Assembly (NCBI GenBank): GCA_033852075.1
Contig: JAWSVC010000006.1
Location: 28 to 64,027 of the forward strand
Source: Gammaproteobacteria bacterium
GTDB lineage: Bacteria; Pseudomonadota; Gammaproteobacteria; QZLD01
DNA: 64,000 bases
Reading direction: 5' to 3'
This document shows positions 1-27,178 of the stretch, one piece after another (positions within the stretch are counted from its first letter, which is position 1; every line of letters begins with the position of its first letter). The notes below the pieces were generated by a model that was not told where the DNA came from, ran no database searches, and saw only the letters and a list, made by a program, of their open reading frames with translations. The position numbers were made by a program, and so were the translations under genes.

Positions 1-373
1 CTTTTAGTTCTTTGATAGAATTTGCACTTTTTGCAACTAGGCCATCATTACCATTGGAAAAGTCGCCGACGATGATTGCTGTAGAATCAACCCCACCAAC
101 TGCTGGAATGGTAAGAGCATCCATGTTGGTTAGGGTTACTGCATCAAATTGGCCTGCAGTGTATAGGTTGATTGATTCAATATAGTCGTTGATTAAGGTT
201 ACTTCGATTTCAATGCCGTATTTGTCAGCCCATTTCTTTACAATGCCGTTGTCAGCTGCATAACCCCATGGTTCCCAGCCGGTGTAGTGTGACCATGCTA
301 CTTTGAACTTGTCTGCTGCAAAAGTATTAATGCTCATAAGTCCGAATAGTGCTAATACAATAAGTTTTTTCAT
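1..373 (-). CDS. NMT1/SsuA/TauA-like periplasmic substrate-binding-domain lipoprotein (N-terminal part; gene continues past window start)
   Basis: Minus-strand ATG at 371-373 preceded by AGGAGA RBS. Translation MKKLIVLALFGLMSINTFAADKFKVAWSHYTGWEPWGYAADNG... has a signal peptide and type-2 SBP-like N-terminus similar to the SBP domains of the 2479..4044 and 4911..6623 genes. Last gene of the minus-strand operon. Confidence 0.55.
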   Translation of the reverse strand, partial: MKKLIVLALFGLMSINTFAADKFKVAWSHYTGWEPWGYAADNGIVKKWADKYGIEIEVTLINDYIESINLYTAGQFDAVTLTNMDALTIPAVGGVDSTAIIVGDFSNGNDGLVAKSANSIKELK

Positions 374-406
374 TTTTATCTCCTAAGATCCATTTACCTA
401 AAAATA

Positions 407-1612
407 CTAACTAATTTCTAAAGCGTCGAAATCGCTACGAACAACCTTGGCTTCTTCCATTTTTTGGATAGCTTCTTCAGTTTTGGCTGAAAGGTCATCA
501 AGTTCAAGAATGTTCTGAGCCATCTGTGGTAGGGCGCTGCGGCGATATACGGATATATCTTCAAGCGCTGCATTGATGTCTAAGAATGATTTTTTCAGGG
601 CTGCCATGTCTAGTGAAGTGCTTGCAGCCTGTTTGTGGATGTCTGCACCTTGTTGTCTAAGTCTGGCTGCATTGCCAGCGATAAGGTCATCAGTAGTTTT
701 ATTAACCGCTTGGATTTTTTCCAAAACGATTTTTTGATTCGCTAGTGCTAGAGCAAGGGTGACGCCGACTTGTAGGGCGTTAATGGTTACATTGGTTGCT
801 CGATTTACGCCGCGAATAAGTTCTTTATTGTTACGAATGATTACTTCAATAGTCAGAACCCCCTGCTGGTTAACTGCAAGTTGTTGTTGGAGATCCTGAA
901 TGCGTTGACGTAACGGGAATAGAAGTTCTTCTTGTATAAATGCATAGCGAGGATCGTCGCTAGGTAATTCTGTTTCCAGTTTTTCAGTAAGTTGCTTATC
1001 AATTAACTGTCCAAGTTTAATGGCCTTGTTCAGTTTAAATGTTAGATCCCGCATTGTGGCTTGATCTGATTGCAAGGTAATATTGTCGCGTTTTAATTGT
1101 TCTGCGCCATCTTCCAGTGAGTTTACAATTGCTTCAATGACGGTTGATGCACTTTCGTATTTAGTGAAATATCTTTTGATTGGCTTGCCAATAAATGGAA
1201 GAAAGCCAAGCGTCCTTGAAAACCAGCCAGCTTCAAAATTAAAATCGGCTGGATCAAGATCTTCAACCTGCATTTTTAGATCAACCAGAGAATTAGCAAC
1301 CGGGCCACCATCATCTCCTCGTGAAGATAATTTTTTGATTGGTTCTTTTAGCATTGCGCTTTTCTTTGCGGCTTCAAGCTGAAGTTTATGGCTCATATTT
1401 TCCATTGCGCTGCGAGCTTGTAATTTACCTTCAGCATCATCTGGATTTATTAGCAGTAGCTTGTTGGTGATATCACTTGCTTGTTTGGCTAGTTCTTGAT
1501 CTTCCACGCTGACTTGTGGTTCCGCTGCAATCAGTTCATCTTTAATAACATCGATTTCTATCGGTTGCATTACTGACTTTGGCTTTTCCATCTGTTCCAT
1601 GGTTGTACTCAT
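407..1612 (-). CDS. TelA-like toxic anion resistance family protein (401 aa)
   Basis: Size and alpha-helical coiled-coil-rich composition typical of the TelA/YaaN family. Start has RBS TGGAGA. Sits directly downstream of an XpaC-like gene, as in the Bacillus xpaC-yaaN pair. Called from composition and context, not a motif search. Confidence 0.55.
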   Translation of the reverse strand: MSTTMEQMEKPKSVMQPIEIDVIKDELIAAEPQVSVEDQELAKQASDITNKLLLINPDDAEGKLQARSAMENMSHKLQLEAAKKSAMLKEPIKKLSSRGDDGGPVANSLVDLKMQVEDLDPADFNFEAGWFSRTLGFLPFIGKPIKRYFTKYESASTVIEAIVNSLEDGAEQLKRDNITLQSDQATMRDLTFKLNKAIKLGQLIDKQLTEKLETELPSDDPRYAFIQEELLFPLRQRIQDLQQQLAVNQQGVLTIEVIIRNNKELIRGVNRATNVTINALQVGVTLALALANQKIVLEKIQAVNKTTDDLIAGNAARLRQQGADIHKQAASTSLDMAALKKSFLDINAALEDISVYRRSALPQMAQNILELDDLSAKTEEAIQKMEEAKVVRSDFDALEIS

Positions 1613-1645
1613 ACTAAGTTCTCCATTTTTTGCCCCATTGGGTTA

Positions 1646-2467
1646 TCATTTGTTAATTGAGTAATCATTTGCTCTGGATGCAAGTTGACTTAATTCTTGC
1701 ATGGCCGTTTCCAAATCCAGTGTGGACATCCCTTTGCGAGTGGTAATTCCTGAAAGGGCAGCAGTAGTCTCATCTATCACTGTCATTGCTGATTCATTTT
1801 TAGCAAACAGGTGTTTAATCGTCTTTTGTTGTTCGTTAAAAATTCCTTGGCGTTTGCTGTAAGACTCCATTTCCAGACGCTGGTGTTCATCAATTTCTTT
1901 TTGCCGATCCAGTTCAAGCATTCTGGAATTTATCAGATCAATGTCGATAGCTTGAATGCTATTAATTCTAGTAGTAACCTCCGAAAGGTTATCTATGACA
2001 GAAAGGAAGACTTGTTCAGCTATTCCGAGATAGCGATTAAAAGAGATCTCTCCTGGATTGAGTTTTTCCGACAGAATTTTTTCTAAAAGCTCAAATTTTT
2101 CCTGCAGACGCTCAAGTTGGTCTAACCCTTGTTGGCTATTAACCTGTTCTAATTTGCTCTTAAGATCATTAAGGCTTTTTTCTCTGCTTTGGGATAGTTG
2201 TTGTTGCAGGCTTTGTACATAGTCGTTAGTTATCTGTTCTTTGCGTACCGTAAAGTTGGTTATAAGGGCGCCAATACTAATTACCCCTCCAGCTGCCGCT
2301 GCAGCAATTGGGATCACTGTGGGGCCAAGTAATAGGGCTGCTGCACCACCAAGTATTCCAATTGCTCCGGGATACAGAACTAGTGGATGCTGGATGCTAT
2401 TTTTCATAATGGCGCTGGAAATGGCCTTTTTTGAAAAATCTATTCTTGCTGGTGTATTGCTACTCAT
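1646..2467 (-). CDS. XpaC-like membrane protein (N-terminal Gly/Ala-rich transmembrane hairpin plus C-terminal coiled coil)
   Basis: 273 aa. Hydrophobic segment GAIGILGGAAALLLGPTVIPIAAAAAGGVISIGALI followed by a long coiled-coil region. Adjacent to the TelA-like gene (known xpaC-telA association). Confidence 0.35.
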   Translation of the reverse strand: MSSNTPARIDFSKKAISSAIMKNSIQHPLVLYPGAIGILGGAAALLLGPTVIPIAAAAAGGVISIGALITNFTVRKEQITNDYVQSLQQQLSQSREKSLNDLKSKLEQVNSQQGLDQLERLQEKFELLEKILSEKLNPGEISFNRYLGIAEQVFLSVIDNLSEVTTRINSIQAIDIDLINSRMLELDRQKEIDEHQRLEMESYSKRQGIFNEQQKTIKHLFAKNESAMTVIDETTAALSGITTRKGMSTLDLETAMQELSQLASRANDYSINK

Positions 2468-2478
2468 TAGTTCCCTTT

Positions 2479-4044
2479 TTACAAATCCTCAGCTACCAGA
2501 TTTAACTCAACTCTGGGTAGTCTGTAGTTGTAGGCTCTATTTGATTCCCCTGGTTTTTTGGCAAGCGGTTTGCTAGAACCATAGCCAACAGCTCTAATTC
2601 TGTCGATATCAATGTTATAGGTGATTTCTATGTAGCGTGCAACAGATTCCGCTCGATCTTGCGATAGCAGCTGGTTGGCGGTTTTGTCACCGCGCAGACC
2701 AGTATGGCCTTTGATGACAACTCTGAAATTAGGGTAATGCTTAAGTTGTTTTATTGCTTTATCTATCTCTTTTTTGCCATCTAGATTGAGGTCTGATGTG
2801 CCGCTTTGGAATGAGATAGGGCGAATTCGTAATGTGCCGATTTCTCGTAGTTTATCCCATTGCGCTGGACTAAGTGGGGTAAAGTCCCTTTCTAGGGATG
2901 ATTTGCCGCTACTGCTCTCTTTGCTGCCAAATCCTGCACTCATGTTTTTTTCGAATAATTTGCCTATAAACGAACTGTTGGTGATGCGATATGGATTACC
3001 GTCCGGGATTGGGTTTTTGGAAAAATCACCATTATCTATAAGGATTTCTATGCTTGATTCAATAGTATCAATCAGATCTTCTCTGGTATCAGTAGCATAA
3101 TTGCTAGAGATGCCGAACCATTGTGCTGCATTGTCAGTTAGACTGGCCCATGAAATCCCTTGCATAAGTTTTTCAGCTTTGGATTTAGAAAGGTCTGATT
3201 GTGAGGCGATCTCTTTTATAAGAGACTTTTTGTTTTGGCGATAGTATTTTTGTGTTTTGAAATAATTATCTAATAGGGTGTTAACAGCCTCTGGGTTGTT
3301 ATTAGAATATTCGCGGTTTACCAGTAAAATATCCACTATAAGTTTATTGGTGTCCTCTGTTCCTAGTAGTTTTATTATCCCTTTCTTTTCCAAGGCTTTT
3401 GATACGTCCGGTTCCCAGATGACTGCGGCATTAACCTGTTTGTCCAGTAAAGCCTTTAAAGCTTCTTCTGAACCGTCGCGTTGGTCGCGCCAGTTATTAT
3501 GTTGTCCCATTAAGGTGGGTACATCAAAGTGATAGCCAACGGCCTTAATTAAATGCTCACTTGGTGAACTAGGAGTATAAGCAATTTTAAGGTCCTGTTT
3601 GGTTTTGAGGTCATCAATAGTTTTGATCTGGTCTTCCCAGGCAACAATTGCATCACCACCTTTTGATTCATCAATAATGGTGATTATTGTGCCAGGAAAA
3701 CTATATTCTGCGGCACTAAGGATATAGGAATCGACTGTCGCAACTGCAAATTGAATCTTTCCTTTTTTAAGGTCTTTCATCCTGGAACTGTAGTCGGCAT
3801 TGTCGTTTTCGCAGTTTAGGATATAACCGCTACGTCTCATGCGTCCTTTCATTTCTGAGGAGCAAAGAGGGATGTAGCCTGCCCAGTTATCTATGCCAAT
3901 AGTGATTGTGCCCTTGGTATCTTTTGCGTCAGAAGTATCTATCTGTTTGCTTTCGTGAAGCAGCGGAAGTATAAATTTGGCTCCAATCAGTGCGGCAACG
4001 CCGAAAAACACCAGAATCAGGAATGCCTTAAAATGGTTGTTCAT
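2479..4044 (-). CDS. membrane-anchored NMT1/SsuA-like substrate-binding domain fused to C-terminal OmpA/MotB-like peptidoglycan-binding domain
   Basis: Start chosen at MNNHF (ATG 4042-4044, RBS AAAGGGA) rather than the upstream M at 4074. N-terminal TM helix, then SBP-like region (TIGIDNWAGYIPL ... IAYTPSSPSEHL ...), then OmpA-like C-terminus (VVIKGHTGLRGDKTANQLLSQDRAESVARYI...RIRAVGYGSSKPL). Confidence 0.7.
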   Translation of the reverse strand: MNNHFKAFLILVFFGVAALIGAKFILPLLHESKQIDTSDAKDTKGTITIGIDNWAGYIPLCSSEMKGRMRRSGYILNCENDNADYSSRMKDLKKGKIQFAVATVDSYILSAAEYSFPGTIITIIDESKGGDAIVAWEDQIKTIDDLKTKQDLKIAYTPSSPSEHLIKAVGYHFDVPTLMGQHNNWRDQRDGSEEALKALLDKQVNAAVIWEPDVSKALEKKGIIKLLGTEDTNKLIVDILLVNREYSNNNPEAVNTLLDNYFKTQKYYRQNKKSLIKEIASQSDLSKSKAEKLMQGISWASLTDNAAQWFGISSNYATDTREDLIDTIESSIEILIDNGDFSKNPIPDGNPYRITNSSFIGKLFEKNMSAGFGSKESSSGKSSLERDFTPLSPAQWDKLREIGTLRIRPISFQSGTSDLNLDGKKEIDKAIKQLKHYPNFRVVIKGHTGLRGDKTANQLLSQDRAESVARYIEITYNIDIDRIRAVGYGSSKPLAKKPGESNRAYNYRLPRVELNLVAEDL

Positions 4045-4094
4045 ATCAATAATTTCCCTTTGAATTCCTACCAAAAACCAAGTTTAGACCCTTT

Positions 4095-4892
4095 TTATTG
4101 GAAGTCTGTGACAGTGAATTCTTCGGATTCAGCCAAAATGTCGTCAAGTCCTTGGCGTAGACTTTCAAGATTGCTTGCAGCCTTATAATAGGTTCTACCT
4201 GGCTGATTTAGCGAATGGTTTTCATCTAAGCAGAAGCCAATTGTATGTACAAGTATAGGGGTGTCATTGATAATATTATTAACCAAATTAGACGGATCCT
4301 CTCCTTCGCTTGCGGCGCCGTCGGTTACAATAATAATATTGTATTCACCGTAACCAAGTTGTTTTCTTCCTTGTTCGGTTATCTTGTTTAAAGCGATATT
4401 TATAGAGCTGTTTAGAGGAGTTCCTCCACCATAACTTACCATTCTTACAGCATCACTAAACATAGCTGTATTTTTTTGTTGTAACGCCATGCGTTCAGAA
4501 GTGCCGTTGCGGTCAAAGGCGACTACACCAATATTGGCTTCTTCCGGGATGTTGCGAGCAAACTCTATTAGAGCAAGTTTGGCAGCCTCCATTTTGGTAT
4601 AGTGCCCAGAACAATCAATATTGTGCATGCTTCCGGAACCATCAATCACAAAGTAATAGTTCTTTGCTAATAGGTTGTCGGCAACACCGTTGCTACTATC
4701 ATCTTCTTTTAGCATTGGCCAATTGTTAATCGTTTTTGCCGGTTTATTTGTAGATTTGCCGGTTGAACTTTGTGCCTGAATTGGAATATTTGGTGTTGAG
4801 GCCGGTTTTCCCGATTTCTGACTGAAGTAAACAAATGCAATCACTACTATGATAATAATCAGGTTTAATTTGAATTTAAGCTTTCTCATCAT
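4095..4892 (-). CDS. von Willebrand factor A domain protein, membrane-anchored (TerY/YegL-like)
   Basis: N-terminal TM segment (LNLIIIIVVIAFVYF). vWA MIDAS motif in YFVIDGSGSM and NIIIVTDG. RBS AGAGGA before ATG. Confidence 0.8.
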   Translation of the reverse strand: MMRKLKFKLNLIIIIVVIAFVYFSQKSGKPASTPNIPIQAQSSTGKSTNKPAKTINNWPMLKEDDSSNGVADNLLAKNYYFVIDGSGSMHNIDCSGHYTKMEAAKLALIEFARNIPEEANIGVVAFDRNGTSERMALQQKNTAMFSDAVRMVSYGGGTPLNSSINIALNKITEQGRKQLGYGEYNIIIVTDGAASEGEDPSNLVNNIINDTPILVHTIGFCLDENHSLNQPGRTYYKAASNLESLRQGLDDILAESEEFTVTDFQ

Positions 4893-4910
4893 TGATCCTC
4901 TTTGCTTTGT

Positions 4911-6623
4911 TTAAAGAGGCTTGAATACAGATGATTCTGCTTCAACCTGAATGATACGGAACTGAACGCGCATATTGCTTAGCCATTCTTGTTCAGTTTT
5001 AGGTGCGCATGGGATGCTACCGCAAATCCCTGTGCTTGGTTGGTTAATTCCATGGCCAATAGTGGCAAATTGCGATTCATCAAGTGCTACGCCGCTATTT
5101 TCTGCAAACTTTATAATTTCTTCTCGTACTTTGACTGCTCGGGAAAGGCTGAGGTTTTTTGCAGATTGCTTGATACGACTAAGGACTACATCCGGTGCAT
5201 TAGCTTTGCGCTTGCGAAGATATCCCATTGGGTCACTATGTCCTTCAACCGTTATCAATGCGCCGCCATAGGTGCTGGCAAATTCAATAACTTTTTGGAA
5301 TGAATCTGCGTAAAGATCAGCCGAAAACTCATTTTGGTTTGGTTTAAAGAACACCTCAAACGAGAATAATTCATCATTACCAAGAGTTCCTTGTTGTTGT
5401 TTGCGGGAAACTACTGCTGCAACTTGGGTTTTATCAAACTTTGGTTGTTCAACCTTGGCGGTGTTCAGTAGTCCAGCTTCCAATTTTTTATAATCGAAAT
5501 CAGCGGAAACTATAGCTGCTGTTTGGCCTATAAGGCCTATAGTTTTGAATGATGCTTGAGCTTCTGAGGAAAGTTTATTGATATTACGAGGATATTTGCT
5601 GTTTTGGAAAAATTTAATATTGCCTTGATAACCAGCAAATTCAGCATCCAAATATAATCCTTCTGCATCTGCAGCGGCTTCTTTTGCATCTAGCAGGATA
5701 TCCGCAGAACTTTCAAGAAGTTTTGTCTTATCACTACCAGTACCAGACATGATTGCAGCTATTTTTTCTTGGGCTTTAAATAATGAATGAACAAAGGCAT
5801 CAACTTCACTGCGATTAGATTTATAAAAATCAGATCTAACGGCATATACGTCAGCAATAATGCGGTTTGCTGTTTTTGTGGACATTAGAATTTGTGCGCC
5901 TTTAACTGAATCTTCCGCGCCGGTGCCAACGGTGCCATTCGATGATAGGGCAAGAGCATCAGGAATGATTACAAAAGCTGCATCTATATCTGATTCGTAA
6001 AATGCAGCCATAGGTGAATTATCGGTTCCGGTAAGGTCAGGAAGCCACTTGATTTTAACGTCTTTTAGATTTAACCCTGCATCTGACAGAACTTTGGTTA
6101 AATAATCAACATGTGGTCCATATGCCTGAACTGCTATAGTTTTGCCCTTAAGGTCTTTAGTGGTTTTTATATTCTCTTTTACAACCAGAGCATCACCACC
6201 GGCAGACCAGGTTAACTGATAGATAAATACCGGTTTGGTTGCCTGGTTTTGATTAAGCAGTTCCATCGCTTGGCTGCACATGCCAACAGTACAGCGTAAG
6301 AAAGGAGATTTTCCGCTAAGGTATGATGACAGTTGATCGGTAAAGTTATCTACGCGGGATAGTTTGATTCTTAATCCTGCATCGGAAAATATACTTTTGT
6401 CGGCTGTAGTTCTGCTATTGCCGTTGGCATAGATAGTGGCTATATCTCCGCCCCAGGTGATTATTGGAACCTCTAAAGTGTTATTGTATTTTAAGGGTCC
6501 TACAGGGGTTTTTACTACCTGTTTAAGAGGTTTTATATCGATATATGCTGGTTTGGCAAATATTGATGATGTAAAAGCGAAAAGAACGAAGATAGAACTT
6601 AAGATAATAGAAATCTTTTTCAC
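4911..6623 (-). CDS. secreted NMT1/SsuA-like substrate-binding domain fused to C-terminal OmpA-like domain (570 aa); first gene of operon
   Basis: GTG start at 6621-6623 with GGGAG RBS. Signal peptide MKKISIILSSIFVLFAFTSSIFA. SBP-like region. C-terminal OmpA-like segment ITVEGHSDPMG...NLSLSRAVKVREEI...IGHGINQP. Confidence 0.7.
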   Translation of the reverse strand: MKKISIILSSIFVLFAFTSSIFAKPAYIDIKPLKQVVKTPVGPLKYNNTLEVPIITWGGDIATIYANGNSRTTADKSIFSDAGLRIKLSRVDNFTDQLSSYLSGKSPFLRCTVGMCSQAMELLNQNQATKPVFIYQLTWSAGGDALVVKENIKTTKDLKGKTIAVQAYGPHVDYLTKVLSDAGLNLKDVKIKWLPDLTGTDNSPMAAFYESDIDAAFVIIPDALALSSNGTVGTGAEDSVKGAQILMSTKTANRIIADVYAVRSDFYKSNRSEVDAFVHSLFKAQEKIAAIMSGTGSDKTKLLESSADILLDAKEAAADAEGLYLDAEFAGYQGNIKFFQNSKYPRNINKLSSEAQASFKTIGLIGQTAAIVSADFDYKKLEAGLLNTAKVEQPKFDKTQVAAVVSRKQQQGTLGNDELFSFEVFFKPNQNEFSADLYADSFQKVIEFASTYGGALITVEGHSDPMGYLRKRKANAPDVVLSRIKQSAKNLSLSRAVKVREEIIKFAENSGVALDESQFATIGHGINQPSTGICGSIPCAPKTEQEWLSNMRVQFRIIQVEAESSVFKPL

Positions 6624-6907
6624 GTAGCTGCTCCCTTAATCCATTGGTTGTAGCAATATAATTCCAGCTGTCTAAACTAAATTTATAGGCCCTGTTTTTT
6701 TGACCTGAATCGGCTTGCTGAATCATACCTAATCAACCCATTATGATTCATAGCAAAGACAGATCCAGATTATCACACGAAATGGTATATTAAGCCAGCC
6801 CTTACCATATAGTGAAAAACCTTGAAAACTTAATGAGGTGGATTGATTTCTGCCTGTCAGAAGGGTAATCTTCCACCCGTTGAGATATGTATAGAAGGCG
6901 AAAGAAA

Positions 6908-7660
6908 ATGCGTAAACCGATAGTAGCTGGAAACTGGAAAATGAATGGTAACCAGGAGAGTATAGTTTCATTGCTGGATGGAGTTATTTCTGGTGTTGAT
7001 GGGAATATTAAAGCTCAAGTTATAGTTTGTAGTCCTTTTATTTACCTGCCAATGGTGGCTGGTAAGGTTGCAGATACTAATGTTGAGTTTGGATCGCAGA
7101 ATATTTCACAATTTGAGTCGGGTGCGTATACCGGTGAGATATCAGCGAAGATGCTAAAAGATTTTGATTGTAAATATGCCATTATCGGGCATTCCGAGCG
7201 TAGACATATCTTTGGTGAGACAGATCAGGATGTGGCGGATAAATATAAAAAGGCTCAGGAGCATGGAATTACTCCAATTCTTTGTGTTGGTGAGTTATTA
7301 GAAGAGCGCGAAGCAGATAAAACTGCCGAGGTCGTTATTAGGCAGATAGATGCGATTCTATCAACCAGCGGTGTCGAATCTTTACAAAATGCGATTGTTG
7401 CCTATGAGCCGGTTTGGGCTATTGGAACAGGTAAAACAGCTACTCCGGAGCAAGCTCAGGAAGTTCATAAATTAATTCGCGAGACTATTGCTAAACAAAG
7501 TGATACAATCGCGGGCTCGCTGCGAATCCTATATGGAGGCAGCGTAAAATCATCCAACGCAGTAGAATTGTTTGCGATGGAGGATATAGACGGTGGGTTA
7601 ATTGGTGGTGCGTCGTTGGAAGCAGAAGATTTTCTGGCGATATGTGCAGCCGCTAATTAG
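6908..7660 (+). CDS. tpiA: triosephosphate isomerase
   Basis: MRKPIVAGNWKMNG N-terminus, IGHSERR catalytic region, AYEPVWAIGTG motif. Start moved to the internal ATG at 6908. Confidence 0.95.
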   Translation: MRKPIVAGNWKMNGNQESIVSLLDGVISGVDGNIKAQVIVCSPFIYLPMVAGKVADTNVEFGSQNISQFESGAYTGEISAKMLKDFDCKYAIIGHSERRHIFGETDQDVADKYKKAQEHGITPILCVGELLEEREADKTAEVVIRQIDAILSTSGVESLQNAIVAYEPVWAIGTGKTATPEQAQEVHKLIRETIAKQSDTIAGSLRILYGGSVKSSNAVELFAMEDIDGGLIGGASLEAEDFLAICAAAN

Positions 7661-7696
7661 ATTGTAGAATCCAAACACAGTATTAAGAAGAAATAG

Positions 7697-8296
7697 ATGG
7701 AAACGATATTACTTATTATTCACGTTCTAGTGGCCATGGCGCTTATTGGTTTGGTACTTATGCAGCAAGGGAAAGGTGCTGACATGGGTGCGGGTTTTGG
7801 TAGCGGTGCTTCCGGAACAGTATTTGGAGCAAGTGGTTCCGGGTCATTCATGAGCAGATTAACCGGAGGTGTTGCTGCTGCATTCTTTATAATGACTATC
7901 GTGCTTGCGATTGTTTCAAGCCAAACGGCTGAAAATAAAGATGTGATTAGTGATGCATTAGATGAGCCGGCAGTTGTAGAAACTGTTAAAGCAGATGCGG
8001 ATGAGGCTCCTGCGGCTCCAGCTGAAGAAACAGCAACGATTAAAGAAGGTGAAGCTGCAGCTAATCTTGAAGACATTAAGCCAGAAGCTGAGCAATTTGA
8101 AGAGAAGGTTGAGGCTGCAACAGAAGAAGCTGCAACAGAAGAAGCTGCAACAGAAGAAGCTGCAACAGAAGAGGTAGCGGCAGAAGTTAAAGAAGCAGCT
8201 ACTGAAGCAGCAGAAAAGGTTGAAGAAAAAGTTGAGCAGGCTGAAGAAACTGTAACAGAAACAGTTGAAACCGCTAAGGAAGAGTCGGCTCAATAA
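7697..8296 (+). CDS. secG: preprotein translocase subunit SecG with ~100-aa acidic E/A/T-rich C-terminal extension
   Basis: N-terminus METILLIIHVLVAMALIGLVLMQQGKGADMGAGFG matches the SecG signature LQQGKGADMG. The tail contains 4 tandem copies of ATEEA (gcaacagaagaagct x4 at ~8125-8180). Conserved secG-tRNA-Leu synteny. Confidence 0.85.
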   Translation: METILLIIHVLVAMALIGLVLMQQGKGADMGAGFGSGASGTVFGASGSGSFMSRLTGGVAAAFFIMTIVLAIVSSQTAENKDVISDALDEPAVVETVKADADEAPAAPAEETATIKEGEAAANLEDIKPEAEQFEEKVEAATEEAATEEAATEEAATEEVAAEVKEAATEAAEKVEEKVEQAEETVTETVETAKEESAQ

Positions 8297-8310
8297 TTAA
8301 ACCAAAGATT

Positions 8311-8395
8311 GCCGAAGTGGTGGAATTGGTAGACACGCTATCTTGAGGGGGTAGTGGCGCAAGCCGTGCCGGTTCGAGTCCGGCCTTCGGCACCA
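8311..8395 (+). tRNA. leuU: tRNA-Leu (anticodon GAG), leuU-type, with encoded CCA
   Basis: gccgaagtggtggaattggtagacacgctatcttgagggggtagtggcgcaagccgtgccggttcgagtccggccttcggcacca. Near-identical architecture to E. coli leuU. Anticodon loop cuUGAGg. Long variable arm. Confidence 0.93.
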
Positions 8396-8410
8396 AGAAG
8401 GTGTTGCAAA

Positions 8411-8445
8411 GGGTTTCAGGATGTCCTGAAACCCTTTTGTTTTTG
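8411..8445 (+). terminator. Rho-independent terminator after tRNA-Leu
   Basis: Perfect hairpin gggtttcagga/tgtcctgaaaccc followed by ttttgtttttg. Confidence 0.75.
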
Positions 8446-8548
8446 CGGTGTTACGAAGTTTTGTTGTTTTATGGTGTTTCAGGTGAGTTCACTGTATAGC
8501 ACCACAAATGGTGCTATCTCAGTTCGTTTTAAGTGAGGTAGCGCCAAA

Positions 8549-8843
8549 ATGGCTCTAACCGATTTAAAGATAAAGCGTACAGCTCCTCAGTTGAAAGATT
8601 TGTGGCTCACCGATGAAAAGGGGCTGCGCCTTCTCATAAAACCAAACGGTTCCCGTTATTGGCGATTGCGTTATCGTTTTAACGGTAAGCAAAAAACTTT
8701 AGCGATTGGCGTCTATCCCGATGTGTCTCTGATATCCCGATGTGTCTCTGAAACAAGCCAGAGAAGCAAGAGAGGAAGCCCGAAAGTTAATTTCCCAAGG
8801 AACCGATCCCAGTGAAGTTAAAAAGAGGTTTAAAATCGATTAG
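8549..8843 (+). pseudogene. P4-type phage integrase remnant (N-terminal arm-binding region only), frameshifted
   Basis: MALTDLKIKRTAPQLKDLWLTDEKGLRLLIKPNGSRYWRLRYRFNGKQKTLAIGVYPDVSL is the typical DUF4102 N-terminus of tRNA-associated integrases. A 19-bp tandem duplication (8714-8732 = 8733-8751, tatcccgatgtgtctctga) shifts the frame. The restored frame reads SLKQAREAREEARKLISQGTDPSEVKKRFKID then stops. No catalytic domain follows. Confidence 0.8.
8714..8751 (+). repeat. 19-bp perfect tandem duplication inside the integrase remnant
   Basis: tatcccgatgtgtctctga occurs twice in tandem. Confidence 0.9.
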
Positions 8844-8969
8844 TGATTTAAAAGAACAGCTGTCGACAATCAAGGTTAATGATAAATCTGAAGCTTACCG
8901 TGAATATAAGGACTTGAATGATTGGTTGGTAGCAAATACGAGAATATAACGATTGCAGGGGAGTATTGG

Positions 8970-9578
8970 TTATTCCAGCATATCAATACTATGGTCTGTT
9001 TCGTCAGAGTTGAACAAATACTTAATATTATCTTTTTCATCGTCTGAAAAGTTATTCATTCCTTCTATCATTTGAATCCACTTTGATTTATCTGGCCGGT
9101 TATAGAACCATTCAAATAATGAAAACCTAAAAATTCGATGTTGCAGTATATTGCTTTGATTTAAGAAAAAATGTCTAATTTTATCATCGTCTTCAGGTGT
9201 ATTGAAAAAGTAGAGAGAAGCAATCCCACCATCACAACCACGGGTTGGATCTTGATCCCAGTCATCCCTTGAACATCTCTCATTGATCCGATCTAAAAGA
9301 AGATCAAGGGCTTTATTGTGGGGAAGTGAAAGAAGCTCTTTTTTACCTTCAACAGCGCTATTGTATATGCTTAAACATGCTTTATCTTTGTTTTTTCTGC
9401 AACTTTCAAGGATTGAATTGTTAAAAGGGAAGTCTTTTGTGAAGTAGACGAGACTGATTTTTGCAAGAGTGCTATTAGGTAAGTCAGATAAGGGCTTCTT
9501 GTTATAAATAACCAGGATTGAAACAGTTATGCTGATAACGATTAAGAAGCTAACAGGAATAATGACTTTTTTGTTCAT
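8970..9578 (-). CDS. hypothetical membrane-anchored Cys-containing protein (island cargo)
   Basis: Start at MNKKVIIPVSFLIVISITVSILVIY with strong AGGAGA RBS. No recognisable domain. Confidence 0.5.
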   Translation of the reverse strand: MNKKVIIPVSFLIVISITVSILVIYNKKPLSDLPNSTLAKISLVYFTKDFPFNNSILESCRKNKDKACLSIYNSAVEGKKELLSLPHNKALDLLLDRINERCSRDDWDQDPTRGCDGGIASLYFFNTPEDDDKIRHFFLNQSNILQHRIFRFSLFEWFYNRPDKSKWIQMIEGMNNFSDDEKDNIKYLFNSDETDHSIDMLE

Positions 9579-9836
9579 GCTGTATGATCTCCTACTACTA
9601 GTATTTTCCATGCTATCTTATAAGTAGCATTCCAGCGATCAGTTCCTAAGCCTATAGATGTCGAATGCTATGTTCGTAACGAACGTGAGTCAATTATAAT
9701 AAAGTTGTTTCTGACTAGGCACGCATAAAAGATTTATATTGCATAGTAATACCTATCTAATATATTATCACTTTAGCAAATGAGTCGATACGTACAGAAA
9801 CGATCACTTAGATAACTAACTGACACTGGGGGCAAA

Positions 9837-10859
9837 ATGTCTGGAATATATTTTACACAACCTGGCGATACTTTTACTTCGATTATGCGGAAAAGATATA
9901 GAATAGTAGATCCGTTGAAAGTACAGTCAGCGCTTCAATCCACGCTATCCTTATCTGTTAACTCAAATCTTTATATAAATGGATTGCATGCACCTATAAG
10001 ACCATATGAAGTTATAGTATTTCCAAGTGATTTTGAACAAAAAGAAGAATCGCCTATCATTCTGCCATCTCAATTCCAGTCGATTACAAAATTAAAAAGT
10101 ATGCCTCAATCTGAGAAACAGGTAATAGCTGAGTTGAATACTGAAGCCGATTGGCAAACAGCCGAAGCTATAGCTGAGTGGGCAAAAGAGTATGGTTTTC
10201 TTGGTTTATCTGGTGATGCGAACACTGGTTCTGGGACAGCCATTGGTATGGCTGCACAAAAAGCAACACCTTTTGTTGATAAATTAAATCAGCTTGATAA
10301 TGCTCTTGTTGAATATCGGGCAGTTGCAAATAAGGTTGGGGCAGCAAGACAAGCAGCAAAAGCGAAAGTATTATCACTGCATAAACAGCTTAACCAGCTT
10401 TTTGGTAAAGAAATAAAAGCAATATTATTACGAAAGAGTAATGTTCCAGAAAGAAGCCCATTGATAAATCCTGATAGAGCTATTCATATGGCTCGAAGTG
10501 GCAGAAGACCCCCAAATCTTACTAGAGCTGCAGGCGTGCAAAGTATTGGTACCTTTGCAAAGTATGCAAAACCTGTTGGTAAGGGACTTGTAGCATTAGA
10601 TCTTGGATTTAGGGGCTGGAAAATATATGATGCACATCAGCGAAATCAAGATTGGTATAGAGAACTAGCGGTACAAAGTGGTGGATTGCTAGGTGCGTCT
10701 CTTGTAGCTGGAGCCGCTTCTTTTGTCGCTGGTTTAATTGTTCTAGGACCTTTTGGTTTAGTAATTCTGCTTCTTGTTGGAGCAGCTGTTGCAATTACGG
10801 CTGATTATATTTTTCAAGATCTTGGCGGCCAGTTTTACGACTATACAAGAACTTTTTAG
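9837..10859 (+). CDS. hypothetical protein with LysM-like N-terminus, helical middle region and C-terminal glycine-zipper hydrophobic hairpin (candidate membrane-active toxin)
   Basis: N-terminus IYFTQPGDTFTSI resembles the LysM core (YxVxxGDTLxxIA). The C-terminal ~45 residues LLGASLVAGAASFVAGLIVLGPFGLVILLLVGAAVAITADYIF form a hydrophobic helical hairpin. Confidence 0.45.
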   Translation: MSGIYFTQPGDTFTSIMRKRYRIVDPLKVQSALQSTLSLSVNSNLYINGLHAPIRPYEVIVFPSDFEQKEESPIILPSQFQSITKLKSMPQSEKQVIAELNTEADWQTAEAIAEWAKEYGFLGLSGDANTGSGTAIGMAAQKATPFVDKLNQLDNALVEYRAVANKVGAARQAAKAKVLSLHKQLNQLFGKEIKAILLRKSNVPERSPLINPDRAIHMARSGRRPPNLTRAAGVQSIGTFAKYAKPVGKGLVALDLGFRGWKIYDAHQRNQDWYRELAVQSGGLLGASLVAGAASFVAGLIVLGPFGLVILLLVGAAVAITADYIFQDLGGQFYDYTRTF

Positions 10860-10861
10860 CA

Positions 10862-11287
10862 ATGAACTTATTTAAGGAAATCATTTTTTGGGGGACGGCA
10901 ATTAGTGGTGTTTTAGGGATAGGTTCATATACGTACTTATTCCCTTTGTATTACTTCTTGTTCATGAAAAAACTTGATAAGTATTACTTAAATACCAAAG
11001 CAGTAGAACACCCCTTTTTCCCCAAAAGCATTTTTCTCAGAATGATGTTTTATTGTAGCAGTATTGTTTTTCAGAAAATCGCCTTAAAAGGCGCACTAAA
11101 TGACCAGTTTTTTGAAGGAGACTATCCAAGAAATCATTGTTCTACGCTACAAATATTATTAGCTCATTATTGCGCTATTACAATTTCTATAGCCATTTTA
11201 TTTATTGTTATTGCTACCATATTTGATTTCGTAATTGTTCCATTAGCAGGTATTTCTCCCATATTTGGAAATGCCTCTCCATCTTGA
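10862..11287 (+). CDS. small polytopic membrane protein (candidate immunity partner)
   Basis: 141 aa with 3 predicted TM segments. Starts 3 nt after the stop of the preceding gene. Low GC. Confidence 0.4.
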   Translation: MNLFKEIIFWGTAISGVLGIGSYTYLFPLYYFLFMKKLDKYYLNTKAVEHPFFPKSIFLRMMFYCSSIVFQKIALKGALNDQFFEGDYPRNHCSTLQILLAHYCAITISIAILFIVIATIFDFVIVPLAGISPIFGNASPS

Positions 11288-11493
11288 TGAATGAATTTAT
11301 AAAACAATTCCTTGATTATGGTTCTGCTGTTGAGTTTTGGAAAGAAAAGCTGGATAAAAATGTTGAAAGAGATCGTAAAAATATCCATGATTTGGAAAAC
11401 TTGGGATGGAAAGTTATTGTTATATGGGCATGTGAGATAAATGAAAAAAATCTGGTCGCACTAGCTGAAAAAGTGGCTGCCAACTTGAGTTAG
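11284..11493 (+). pseudogene. vsr: very-short-patch repair endonuclease (Vsr) C-terminal remnant
   Basis: EFWKEKLDKNVERDRKNIHDLENLGWKVIVIWACE matches the E. coli Vsr C-terminus EFWLEKIGKNVERDRRDISRLQELGWRVLIVWECAL. The upstream same-frame translation lacks the Vsr catalytic N-terminal region. Confidence 0.7.
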
Positions 11494-11683
11494 AGAATTT
11501 AGTTATTTAGACAGATATCTCCGCACTTCTATCATAAAACTCTTTCCCTTTATCCTCGTTGCAGGCAAAAGCAATCATTTCTATTTCAGCAATGGCATTC
11601 AAACCAGTCTTGATAGATTTAATCTCATTATAGATTTTCCTGTTTATGAATGAGTCGGTTCAACCAACTGATTTGTAGCAGTT

Positions 11684-12730
11684 TTAATCTAACAGCGGCT
11701 CAATTTTCTTGAAAAATTCATACCCTTTTTCCTTTCCTTCTTCTGTTCCATCCTGCGAGAAAAAGTTAAGCTGGTCAATTAATGATTCTTTCACTTTTTG
11801 TGCAATAAACAGTTGGAAAGGTTCACTATCCCCTCCAGTGAGCACACCACAATAATTTGAAAGTATAGAGTAATACTCTCTACGCTTATTCATTTCAGAA
11901 TCAATAACAGTTACAGGATATCCATGTTGAAATAGATACAGGTTCATTATTAACCTTGATGTACGACCATTTCCATCAATAAACGGATGAATATTTACAA
12001 ATTTTTGATGTAAGTGTGCAGCCATTTCCACAGGGTGCATAGAGTTTTTGTTATCTTCAAAAAAGCGGAAAAAGTCCTCTATCAATTTTGGCAATATATA
12101 GGGTTGAGGAAATTCATGTTTACTACCATCCTGCTGCATTACAAATACAGGTTGTTTTCTATATTGCCCTGCTTGCTCGTCTTGAATTCCCTTTAATATT
12201 AAGGAGTGAATGTTTTTTATTTCACGCTCAGATAGTTCTATTTCATGCTTTGCAAGATCACGAATATAATGAATAGCCTCTTGATGATTTATTGCTTCCA
12301 AATGATCAACAAGTGGTTTTCCACCAATAGTTAAACCTGTATTAATTACCTGTTCGGTTTCCCCCAGTGTTAATGAATTACCCTCAATACAATTTGATTC
12401 ATAGGTGTATTTAATATCCAGCTCTTGATTCAGATTTTTAAGCATACTGCCATTAAACGGCCTAAAACTATCAAGGCAATCTTTAAGTTCTGTTAATTGA
12501 TTATATAATTCAGGCAGATTATCTGTTTCAGGCCAAATTTTAAGCAGATCTAATTGTGCATTATATTTTCCAGTATTATTCATAATATCCATAAGTGATG
12601 AATTAAAACGCTCTTTTAAAATGAGAAGCTTGTTTTTTTGCTCTTCATTTAATTTGGGCTGAGATTTTGGAGTATTTACTGTCATGATCGATAATGTTCT
12701 TTGAGTTTTTATAAACGTTAAGTTTATCAA
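11684..12730 (-). CDS. Fic/Doc family protein (putative AMPylator/adenylyltransferase)
   Basis: Canonical Fic motif HPFIDGNGRTSRL in a 348-aa protein. Lies in the tRNA-Leu-associated island. Confidence 0.85.
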   Translation of the reverse strand: MINLTFIKTQRTLSIMTVNTPKSQPKLNEEQKNKLLILKERFNSSLMDIMNNTGKYNAQLDLLKIWPETDNLPELYNQLTELKDCLDSFRPFNGSMLKNLNQELDIKYTYESNCIEGNSLTLGETEQVINTGLTIGGKPLVDHLEAINHQEAIHYIRDLAKHEIELSEREIKNIHSLILKGIQDEQAGQYRKQPVFVMQQDGSKHEFPQPYILPKLIEDFFRFFEDNKNSMHPVEMAAHLHQKFVNIHPFIDGNGRTSRLIMNLYLFQHGYPVTVIDSEMNKRREYYSILSNYCGVLTGGDSEPFQLFIAQKVKESLIDQLNFFSQDGTEEGKEKGYEFFKKIEPLLD

Positions 12731-12925
12731 TAAAATAAATATTTACTTAGCGGTTTTGTTCAATTTTATAATAAGAGAAAATCGGGTTTCGTCAAATAAT
12801 AGTGTAATTTAAAACCGAAACGAGCCGGTTTTAAATTGGGTGTTATCTTATTTATTAATAAAATGACTTAACGGCTGCTGGTGTGATTATAAAAACTCAA
12901 ACGTATTAATCACAAAAAGATTGCA

Positions 12926-12950
12926 TCGAAACTTATATCTGACTAAAATA
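12926..12950 (+). promoter_or_regulatory. type-1 IscR operator upstream of iscR
   Basis: atatctgactaaaatagtcaagtat matches the IscR type-1 consensus ATAsyyGACTrwwwyAGTCrrsTAT at almost every position. It lies 31 nt upstream of the iscR ATG. Confidence 0.75.
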
Positions 12951-12980
12951 GTCAAGTATATGGTTCGTGGAGCAATCCTC

Positions 12981-13439
12981 ATGAAGTTAACAACAAAAGG
13001 TAGATATGCCGTATCGGCGATGCTTGATCTGGCCAAGTATAATCATACGGGCCCGGTGAGTCTTAATGATATTTCCAGGCGAGAAGATATATCCTTGTCT
13101 TATCTTGAGCAAATCTTTACTAAATTACGTAAGGCAGATTTAGTAAAGAGTGTTCGTGGTCCTGGTGGTGGATATAAGCTTGCACATGAAGCTGAAAAAA
13201 TATCTGTAGCCAACGTTATAGATTCGGTTGGTGAAGATGTGGACCTATGTTGTTGTGGTGATAGTAGTGATGCTGATGAAAGGCAGGTATGCTTTACTCA
13301 CAAACTTTGGAGTGGATTAACTCTTTTAATGCGCAAATATTTGGAAAGTGTAACTTTGCAAGAATTACTAGACCCGGAAGTTGAGTTTAGCGGCAGAATA
13401 AGGATAGAGCCCGGCAAAAAAGTATCTGGAGAAAAGTAA
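12981..13439 (+). CDS. iscR: Fe-S cluster assembly transcriptional regulator IscR (Rrf2 family)
   Basis: [19 protein letters not shown]-terminus. Cys cluster [15 protein letters not shown]. Start set at the internal ATG 12981 (RBS GGAG) because the upstream extension overlaps the operator. Confidence 0.9.
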
Positions 13440-15870: not shown

Positions 15871-15970
15871 TTCCTTGCTCGGTTGTTTATTTTTGATAAA
15901 ATGCGCTAACAATTTCATAACGACATATGATGTATTCCAAAATTATTTGGAAAAAAAAGGGGGAGTTAAT

Positions 15971-26807: not shown

Positions 26808-27178
26808 TATTGGTTGCATATGCTGCTTGGTATGTTAGTGGTTGGTTATGTATAAATATCGTACTTTAGTATGATTTTTAGTTGAAGTGCTCATTATAAT
26901 CAGAAAATATATTTTTACTTGTTTGTTGTTAATTGTATGAAAATAAAGCATTAAGTTTTCGACAAGTGTTTATTAATAAAATTATTATATTTGTATAATA
27001 ACCATTTCTATTGTTAGGTCTGCGTTGACCGCCCCTCTTTTATAATTAAAAATCCTTTAATTTACATTTCGGCATTTTGTAAACGTTGAATATAAAACTT
27101 TATTAATGGATAGAAATTGCGAATAAGCGGATTATGGACATTAAAAATCCGTCGCTAAATAATTTTGGAGGAAAATTT

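Follow-up and report, generated by a model that had tools for sequence, protein, structure and literature searches.

Solute-binding proteins fused to OmpA-like domains form, with a VWA protein, the core of a conserved envelope gene cassette with TelA and a putative nitrogen-compound importer

Introduction

Solute-binding proteins (SBPs) of Gram-negative bacteria are normally free in the periplasm. Here we describe a gene cassette in which two of them are instead joined to a C-terminal OmpA-like domain. The cassette was found in a stretch of 64,000 nucleotides from a member of the Gammaproteobacteria (GenBank assembly GCA_033852075.1, contig JAWSVC010000006.1, positions 28 to 64,027; hereafter the window), where its genes lie at one end and run over the edge. 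In its full form it comprises eight genes: A and C, which encode the two SBP-OmpA fusions; B, a VWA protein; D, a coiled-coil protein with two predicted transmembrane (TM) helices; E, which is TelA; F, a free SBP; and G and H, the permease and ATPase of an importer.

Several described systems resemble parts of this cassette. Among free SBPs, Escherichia coli TauA binds the amine of taurine through Glu106 and Asp205, the latter being the residue that separates TauA from SsuA (PMC6906117), and the homologous NitT/TauT-type protein GimA of Synechocystis binds guanidine with a Kd of 97 nM, in a pocket proposed to consist of W59, W62, F205, D135 and D233 (PMC12704784). Binding proteins that are kept from diffusing occur in monoderm bacteria and in archaea, either as lipoproteins or fused to the permease, as in GlnPQ and OpuA. 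OmpA-like domains are found in MotB, PomB and the long form of TssL, where they follow an N-terminal TM helix and a periplasmic part, and in the lipoproteins Pal, YiaD and YfiB. In Enterococcus, XpaC, the partner of TelA, has been linked to daptomycin resistance and to the organisation of membrane lipids, and the pairing of TelA with a small membrane protein is known from envelope stress (PMC6811118).

The cassette recalls each of these systems and departs from all of them. F belongs to TIGR03427, the family of the SBPs of urea/guanidine-carboxylase (uca) operons, and a permease and an ATPase of the type found in those operons and in GimABC come after it; unlike those systems, the cassette has no carboxylase, hydrolase or riboswitch, and it adds two SBP-OmpA fusions, a VWA protein, a 2-TM protein and TelA, whereas GimA and the uca-linked SBPs are free in the periplasm. 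A and C share the fold of TauA and SsuA (PDB 6ssy, 2x26), the best Foldseek matches of their models, and the amine-binding Asp205 and Glu106 loop are conserved in A, C and F; however, identity is only 16-18%, Gln30 is not conserved, and TauA is soluble and carries no wall anchor. The topology of C is that of MotB, but its periplasmic middle is a complete SBP and its TM helix lacks the MotB-type Asp. The motif register of Pal, YiaD and YfiB is kept, with YiaD as the best NCBIfam match (E 2e-20), while C has a Gly for the diaminopimelate-binding Asp and A a 16-residue insertion inside the motif. As in TelA-XpaC clusters of Firmicutes and in Ter systems with their VWA protein TerY, the TelA gene comes immediately after one for a small 2-TM helical membrane protein, and the cluster also encodes a VWA protein; in contrast to these, D matches neither XpaC nor any Pfam family, the VWA domain of B is periplasmic where TerY is cytoplasmic, genes for TerB, TerC and TerD are absent from the cassette, and the hosts are diderm. 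Finally, unlike monoderm bacteria with tethered SBPs, the hosts of the cassette have an outer membrane and keep a free SBP in F, and the tether would be to peptidoglycan, through the OmpA-like domains of two differently placed proteins.

Results

In the window, genes A to F lie close together within positions 1-6623 of the minus strand, separated by gaps of about 11-50 nt. Gene A (6623..4911) starts with GTG and encodes a predicted secreted SBP-OmpA-like fusion of 570 aa, and gene C (4044..2479) a fusion of 521 aa predicted to be anchored in the inner membrane. The longest open reading frame of gene C begins with a TTG (4074..2479); the ATG at 4044 is preceded by a ribosome-binding site, AAGGGA, and since all homologues are also about 521 aa long, this ATG is almost certainly the true start. 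Between the two fusions lies gene B (4892..4095), which encodes the VWA protein. It sits inside the span flagged by the first-pass annotation and was absent from it. That annotation had described A and C as periplasmic solute-binding folds with C-terminal OmpA-like domains, one protein exported by a signal peptide (A) and the other held by an N-terminal TM anchor (C), with the motifs GHSD...LSLSRA in A and GHTG...LSQDRA in C. Our analysis agrees on all of these points, signal peptide and anchor both being read from the sequence, with the caveat that the OmpA match of A is below threshold when A is taken alone.

The N-terminal helix of C (residues 3-35), in which no cleavage motif is seen, is taken to be a membrane anchor, with the TM helix at about residues 7-29 (3958..4026). 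This region holds the conserved residues K23, F24, L26 and P27, and is followed by the invariant juxtamembrane S38 and D39 inside a near-invariant TSDA motif. A linker of only about 10 residues leads to the SBP (about residues 45-366, 2947..3912). No Pfam family matches this part of the window protein, and Phosphonate-bd is matched by 19 of 32 C orthologues; TIGR01728 (SsuA_fam) is hit with an E-value of 1e-16, at 60.7 bits against a cut-off of 163.5. An AlphaFold2 model of C (pLDDT 85.1; the models of A and C were built from 32-33 homologues each) has TauA (6ssy) as its top Foldseek match in the PDB (E 2.7e-14, TM 0.77), followed, for A and C alike, by SsuA, Thi5/NMT1 and NrtA. The OmpA-like domain occupies residues 400-518 (2491..2847) and scores 63.3 bits against PF00691 (cut-off 27.2), which all 32 orthologues match.

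Protein A begins with MKKISIILSSIFVLFAFTSSIFA, followed by KPAY, which has the form of a Sec signal peptide of about residues 1-23, as read from the sequence and not from a predictor. Its SBP of the TauA/NMT1 fold spans about residues 50-395 (5439..6476); Pfam NMT1 (PF09084) matches it at 36.2 bits (cut-off 20.5), the NCBIfam SsuA family at an E-value of 5e-14, far under the curated cut-off, and the top Foldseek match is again E. coli TauA (6ssy, E 2e-13). An OmpA-like nature of the C-terminal domain (residues 418-559, 4947..5372) is supported in three ways: 27 of 33 A orthologues match PF00691 (E<0.01, best 5e-6); hhalign aligns it with the OmpA domain of C (E 2e-4), bringing GHSD onto GHTG and NLSLSRA onto LLSQDRA; and the AlphaFold2 model (pLDDT 86.6) predicts a beta-alpha-beta-alpha-beta-beta module at 418-559. 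The 16-residue insertion lies between GHSD and NLSLSRA, and the domain further carries two invariant cysteines, C534 and C539, and a conserved acidic tail, VEAESSVFxPL. In both A and C the register GH(T/S)x-x2-G...N-x2-LS-x2-RA agrees exactly with canonical domains. The Asp/Arg pair that binds diaminopimelate in Acinetobacter baumannii OmpA consists of D271 and R286 (PDB 3TD3). A keeps this pair as D464 and R495, both invariant, and peptidoglycan binding by A is likely. As regards their SBP parts, A and C match NitT/TauT-type profiles and the type II periplasmic-binding fold; as neither reaches the cut-off of any NCBIfam equivalog, they are not placed in a substrate-level family.

Database searches returned 2,954 homologues of A and 1,181 of C. 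Among the best 120 of each, nearly all are full length, with about 50-66% identity outside the closest relatives. Homologues span Gamma- and Betaproteobacteria, Desulfobacterota, Elusimicrobiota, Nitrospinota and others, and a scan of one genome per species found a relative of C in 264 species, including cable bacteria, Nitrospinota, Nitrospirota and Bdellovibrionota; cultured strains among them are few (e.g. Zooshikella, Desulfogranum japonicum and Arenicella). With the same architectures and lengths recurring in hundreds of independent assemblies, an artefact of gene fusion or assembly is ruled out. Moreover, when the SBP domain of C alone was compared with 1.84 billion cluster representatives, 180 clusters matched at E<=1e-30, and nearly all of these were 500-540 aa long and had the domain at residues 40-370; the C-type SBP therefore seems to exist essentially only in fused form. 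As such, the fusion is old, fixed and common. The first-pass annotation had asked whether the fusion might be common and already annotated in a characterised family: common it is, with 1,181 and 2,954 matches, while the NCBI names are generic ('ABC transporter substrate-binding protein', 'OmpA family protein' and, for the C type, 'phosphate ABC transporter substrate-binding/OmpA family protein') and neither a characterised member nor any experimental study was found.

We then placed the eight proteins on about 80 loci, counting only those with enough flanking DNA for each comparison. In all 66 loci that could be assessed, A and B lie upstream of C and B separates the two fusions; D and E lie downstream of C in 63 of 69, and F-G-H are found within 10 kb in 34 of 43. 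The one set of genes occurs in three orders: ABCDEFGH in most loci, GHABCDEF in Arenicella and Zooshikella, and ABCDFGHE in a betaproteobacterial group. Genes A to H co-occur across at least six phyla, with about 30-66% identity across phyla in each protein family. Since the triad is present in all assessable loci, and D-E and F-G-H are missing in some, A-B-C is therefore the core, to which D-E is nearly always and the importer usually attached. Clustering of 1,119 open reading frames from the roughly 80 loci yielded only the eight core families and no ninth recurrent gene. Neither the fusion nor the cassette was found in the literature, although the Ter/TelA survey of Anantharaman, Iyer and Aravind (2012) may already show this neighbourhood. 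While the window proteins are ordinary members of large, catalogued families, the eight-gene system that links predicted wall-anchored SBPs, a MIDAS protein, TelA and a guanidine/urea-type importer appears to be undescribed.

Some individual loci deserve separate mention. In 11 of about 80 loci, a gene within a few kb of the cassette, on either strand, encodes an AAA+ ATPase (about 490 aa) whose N-terminal domain is uncharacterised (e.g. L056:5712-7211 on the minus strand, L083:5788-7260 and L059:15996-17498), which may be a loose association or coincidence. In four loci, A-B-C stands alone, with D, TelA and the importer absent within 10 kb (L076, L083, L066 and L084, the last with 3.5 kb to the contig end); these include Candidatus Electronema halotolerans, a metagenome-assembled genome (MAG) of the Desulfomonilaceae and two others, and suggest that the triad is able to work alone or with partners encoded elsewhere. 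Cassette contigs also occur under the labels Saccharibacteria, Sungbacteria, Paceibacterota, Streptomycetaceae, Enterobacteriaceae and Bordetella parapertussis MAGs (L029, L040, L071, L053, L031, L033, L069 and L080). As the cassette needs a periplasm and a wall, and these labels do not fit its relatives, the contigs are probably mis-binned or mislabelled. In Arenicella (L001:15496-19540), about 750 nt downstream of the cassette and beyond one intervening gene on the opposite strand, lies a second membrane-stress module with genes for DUF2170 and PspA_IM30 proteins, two unknown genes and one for a 1,772-aa AAA_5/DUF3686 protein.

B (265 aa; Pfam VWA, 49.5 bits) consists of an N-terminal membrane anchor, a linker of about 50 residues rich in Pro, Ser, Thr and Lys, and a VWA domain that is predicted to be periplasmic. 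Its metal ion-dependent adhesion site (MIDAS) is complete (DGSGSM, GGTPL, VTDG) and at least 90% conserved across 53 orthologues. A lipobox replaces the TM helix in 20 of these 53, and in the three lipoprotein N-termini that were read the +2 residue is other than Asp. D (2467..1646, minus strand; 273 aa) is read from its sequence as having two TM helices (about residues 28-72), almost no periplasmic loop and a long cytoplasmic helical or coiled-coil part. None of nine D orthologues matches a Pfam family. D was considered as a homologue of XpaC, but PF10112 gave no match at E<=1 in D of the window or in eight orthologues, so that the resemblance is one of position, adjoining TelA, and of topology only. 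E (1612..407, minus strand; 401 aa) is TelA: its match to PF05816 covers positions 18-331 of the 332 in the profile and scores 234 bits, where the cut-off is 30. Without a signal peptide, it is presumed to be cytoplasmic. We know of no described mechanism for TelA, nor, to our knowledge, does it have any signalling activity.

So what would such a cassette bind? One indication comes from F (373..2, minus strand), a stand-alone SBP of which the window holds the 5' part, 124 aa, before the gene continues beyond the edge. This fragment begins with a signal peptide, includes W33, W36 and D110 of the pocket, and matches TIGR03427 at 188.7 bits over profile positions 2-105; the full-length orthologue of Arenicella reaches 510.6 bits and passes the cut-off of 333.9. 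A and C score only 21-25 bits and are non-members. In relatives, F is followed by the permease G and the ATPase H. F is 55-60% identical to SBPs whose genes adjoin those for urea carboxylase, UAAP1/2 and allophanate hydrolase, on plasmids of Skermanella and Rhizobium. Subtracting 19 from the GimA residue numbers gives W40, W43, W186 and D214 in F, and for the fifth residue position 116, which adjoins D117; this correspondence follows the numbering in PMC12704784 and is not an alignment. At least 44 of 47 sequences share each of W40, W43, W186, D214 and D117, and all five are present in both uca-linked proteins. C is close to F at four of the five positions, with Y57, D131, W210 and D238.

Profile alignments with TauA extend this comparison to all three SBPs. 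The equivalents of Asp205 are D214 in F, D238 in C and D258 in A, all invariant; those of Trp176 are W186, W210 and I219, and those in the Glu106 loop D117, D131 and D144, respectively. Gln30, which contacts the sulfonate in TauA, has no counterpart in A, C or F. Because the amine-binding acids are conserved and Gln30 is without counterpart, A, C and F are taken to keep the cation-binding half of the pocket and not its anion-binding half. This, together with the likeness of F to the SBPs of urea/guanidine-carboxylase operons, points to a small cationic nitrogen compound as the ligand, and not an anion. The ligands suggested by the first-pass annotation are mostly anions (sulfonates, nitrate, phosphonates) and are thus not those that the conserved pocket residues favour.

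The kinship of the three SBPs is remote. By hhalign, A and C match with an E-value of 3e-9, A and F with 1e-11 and C and F with 2.5e-11, while the values against E. coli TauA are 4e-12 (A), 9e-10 (C) and 5.5e-8 (F). F is only 15-22% identical to A and C in profile alignments, and A and C are 27% identical over 161 aa. As such, they are best regarded as very ancient paralogues at the level of the superfamily; each has a set of orthologues to itself, with 50-66% identity across phyla. The first-pass annotation had proposed duplication and diversification within the operon, together with a third, SBP-only paralogue. The third protein exists, as F, and is a paralogue only in the broad sense; the duplication is not supported, since the matches among A, C and F are no stronger than those to TauA, and the nearest relatives of F are the uca-operon SBPs.

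Upstream of gene A, in the opposite direction, lie tpiA, secG and a tRNA-Leu gene, and the region at 6624..6886 (minus strand with respect to gene A) comprises the 5' leader and the divergent intergenic region common to A and tpiA. An Rfam scan by E-value of positions 1-9000 for riboswitches and other RNAs returned only the tRNA and matches at chance level, with no guanidine riboswitch. A sigma-54-like core, TGGATCTGTCTTTGCT, lies at 6767..6752 (minus strand), 144 nt upstream of gene A. Such a pattern precedes the cassette in 3 of 67 loci, where shuffling predicts 0.8, and is absent from the three closest relatives; as it is not conserved, we consider it probably fortuitous. Scans for sigma-70 promoters and terminators gave nothing above shuffled expectation.

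Further along the window, SecG (7697-8296, plus strand) matches Pfam over residues 4-72; unusually, its C-terminus is extended by about 125 residues, in which Ala, Glu and Thr abound and EEAAT repeats stand in tandem. Beyond the tRNA-Leu(GAG) gene (8311-8395) come the remains of an integrase Arm DNA-binding domain, 88 aa long (8549-8815), and then a stretch of low GC content (32-38%, against about 40% elsewhere). This stretch holds reading frames at 8970-9611 and 9837-10859 that have no Pfam match, another at 10862-11287, and a Fic/DOC protein (11684-12730, minus strand); the region 8311-13000 looks like a decayed integrative element at a tRNA. Two large proteins are probably surface-exposed or secreted: one of 798 aa with thrombospondin type 3 repeats and an Lcl C-terminal domain (15875-18271, plus strand), and a subtilase (S8) of 1,613 aa with FG-GAP and bacterial Ig-like repeats (27134-31975, plus strand).

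Discussion

The architecture of the fusions, their conservation, the cassette and the family memberships of its products are observations, from which we infer a mechanism. Our leading interpretation, which we put forward tentatively and with rather less than even confidence, is that A and C are wall-tethered periplasmic receptors which, with B, make up the invariant core of an eight-gene envelope cassette that serves an importer. In this proposal, C would sit on the inner membrane, its OmpA-like domain reaching the peptidoglycan and its binding domain held at the membrane surface by the short linker, much like the lipid-anchored SBPs of monoderms. A would be exported and parked on the peptidoglycan via its own OmpA-like domain. 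B, on its long flexible tether, might bind an acidic motif of A or C through its metal-ion site and so hold the assembly together; candidate motifs are TSDA of C, with S38 and D39, and the C-terminal acidic tail of A. The pockets of F and C, and that of A in modified form, would recognise a small cationic nitrogen compound, for which guanidinium is the best candidate. Placed at two depths of the periplasm, the tethered receptors could then capture this compound or buffer its level on behalf of a GimABC-like importer, F-G-H, while D and TelA would form a module, protective or regulatory, that acts on the cytoplasmic side of the membrane. A tethered, non-diffusing role as receptor or scaffold had already been suggested by the first-pass annotation and seems reasonable.

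Several points weigh against this proposal. Every one of its functional steps, from the ligand and peptidoglycan binding to the contacts and the purpose, goes beyond what is observed, and the match between the pockets of GimA and F follows published numbering. In A the aromatic cage is lost, with D60, T63 and I219 in place of the three Trp residues; for this reason A probably binds another ligand or has another role, and may bind nothing at all. As for wall binding, A alone scores 17.5 bits against PF00691, under the cut-off of 27.2, and in C a near-invariant Gly449 replaces the canonical Asp. Arg464 is kept in C, and D453, four residues after the Gly, is mostly conserved, so that peptidoglycan binding by C is plausible but uncertain. 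Neither urea or guanidine carboxylase, guanidine hydrolase nor any other catabolic gene recurs near the cassette in about 80 loci, and the scanned leader holds no guanidine riboswitch. About 20% of the well-covered loci have no F-G-H nearby, and a few have A-B-C alone, which suggests that the importer may be an accessory and not the purpose of the system. Finally, the proposal leaves the presence of TelA alongside an importer without a mechanistic explanation.

The main rival, which we consider unlikely, is that A-B-C is a structural tether or stress scaffold, in which SBP folds are re-used as protein interaction modules without a small ligand and the importer is no more than a frequent neighbour. 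Such a scaffold would bridge the inner membrane, the peptidoglycan and possibly the outer membrane, like Tol-Pal or MotB, and with D and TelA would maintain or monitor envelope integrity. The invariance of the triad is what one would expect of it, given that 9 of 43 loci lack F-G-H nearby and 6 of 69 lack D-E, as are the complete MIDAS of B, a site of protein adhesion, the B lipoproteins, which could be anchored in the outer membrane, and the pocket of A without aromatic residues. Furthermore, TelA/XpaC has been linked to envelope stress (PMC6811118), and envelope systems that combine VWA and OmpA proteins were predicted earlier (PMC2875224). What a scaffold hardly explains is why A and C have invariant residues that include the equivalents of the ligand-binding Asp, Glu and Trp of TauA, or why eight genes have stayed together through three rearrangements. 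Less likely again, and in our view rather improbable, is a periplasmic sensor, with A, C or both detecting a solute or a wall-derived amine and regulating F-G-H or D/TelA. SBPs are well documented as signalling inputs for chemoreceptors and kinases, and the conserved residues in the TM helix of C, followed by TSDA with its invariant S38 and D39, would suit this role. With almost no periplasmic loop in D, coupling would have to take place through contacts within the membrane. On the other hand, output domains of any kind, such as kinases, cyclases or transcription factors, are not conserved within the cassette or its surroundings across the roughly 80 loci, and TelA is without known signalling activity.

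We must also take into account that A and C might be anion receptors, which scavenge or sequester phosphate, phosphonate, sulfonate, nitrate or toxic oxyanions such as tellurite at the wall. The NCBI name of the C-type proteins, the Phosphonate-bd matches of C orthologues, the sulfonate binders among the best structural matches and the naming of TelA for toxic anion resistance would all lead one to this idea. It is nevertheless distinctly improbable, as the sulfonate-contacting Gln30 of TauA has no counterpart, the pockets are lined with invariant Asp/Glu and aromatic residues, and F is a TIGR03427 member tied to uca operons. The poorest candidate, and a very improbable one, is an anti-phage or conflict system, by analogy with Ter/TelA and with Zorya and its MotB-like protein. 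TelA and Ter genes were reportedly implicated in phage and colicin resistance by Anantharaman et al. in 2012. A PADLOC search for known defence systems gave weak matches, of the OmpA domain of C to MotB/ZorB (E 8e-7) and of D to LeoBC; the former cover only the generic OmpA/MotB domain, the latter is weak (E 2e-5), and we did not retain either. Moreover, the cassette holds no nuclease, protease or other effector, adjoins tpiA and secG in this lineage, and consists of families that keep about 30-66% identity across phyla, unlike fast-evolving defence genes.

Returning to the wall-tethered receptors, a conserved pair of SBPs of which both are fixed to the wall and one also to the inner membrane would mean that position matters for function. 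The cassette joins a guanidine/urea-type importer with a periplasmic MIDAS adhesion protein and TelA, a link that we did not find in the literature. If the link is not functional, A and C are simply members of a large, generically annotated family. A bolder version of the proposal, which we regard as doubtful and still less likely than a scaffold, takes A-B-C-D-E as an undescribed envelope-spanning machine of diderms, in which two peptidoglycan-anchored receptors and a MIDAS adaptor link a TelA membrane module and a dedicated importer to the periplasmic level of a small cation, guanidinium or one like it, that is toxic but useful. If true, this machine would provide the first defined molecular context for TelA, and A and C would be, as far as our literature search shows, the first described wall-anchored SBPs in Gram-negative cells. 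The cultured carriers Zooshikella ganghwensis DSM 15267, Desulfogranum japonicum DSM 18378, Pleionea sediminis and Arenicella are at hand for such work. If the link is functional, it would give a concrete, testable handle on TelA, and would bear on how sediment and groundwater bacteria, among them cable bacteria, Nitrospinota and sulfur oxidisers, handle small nitrogen cations.

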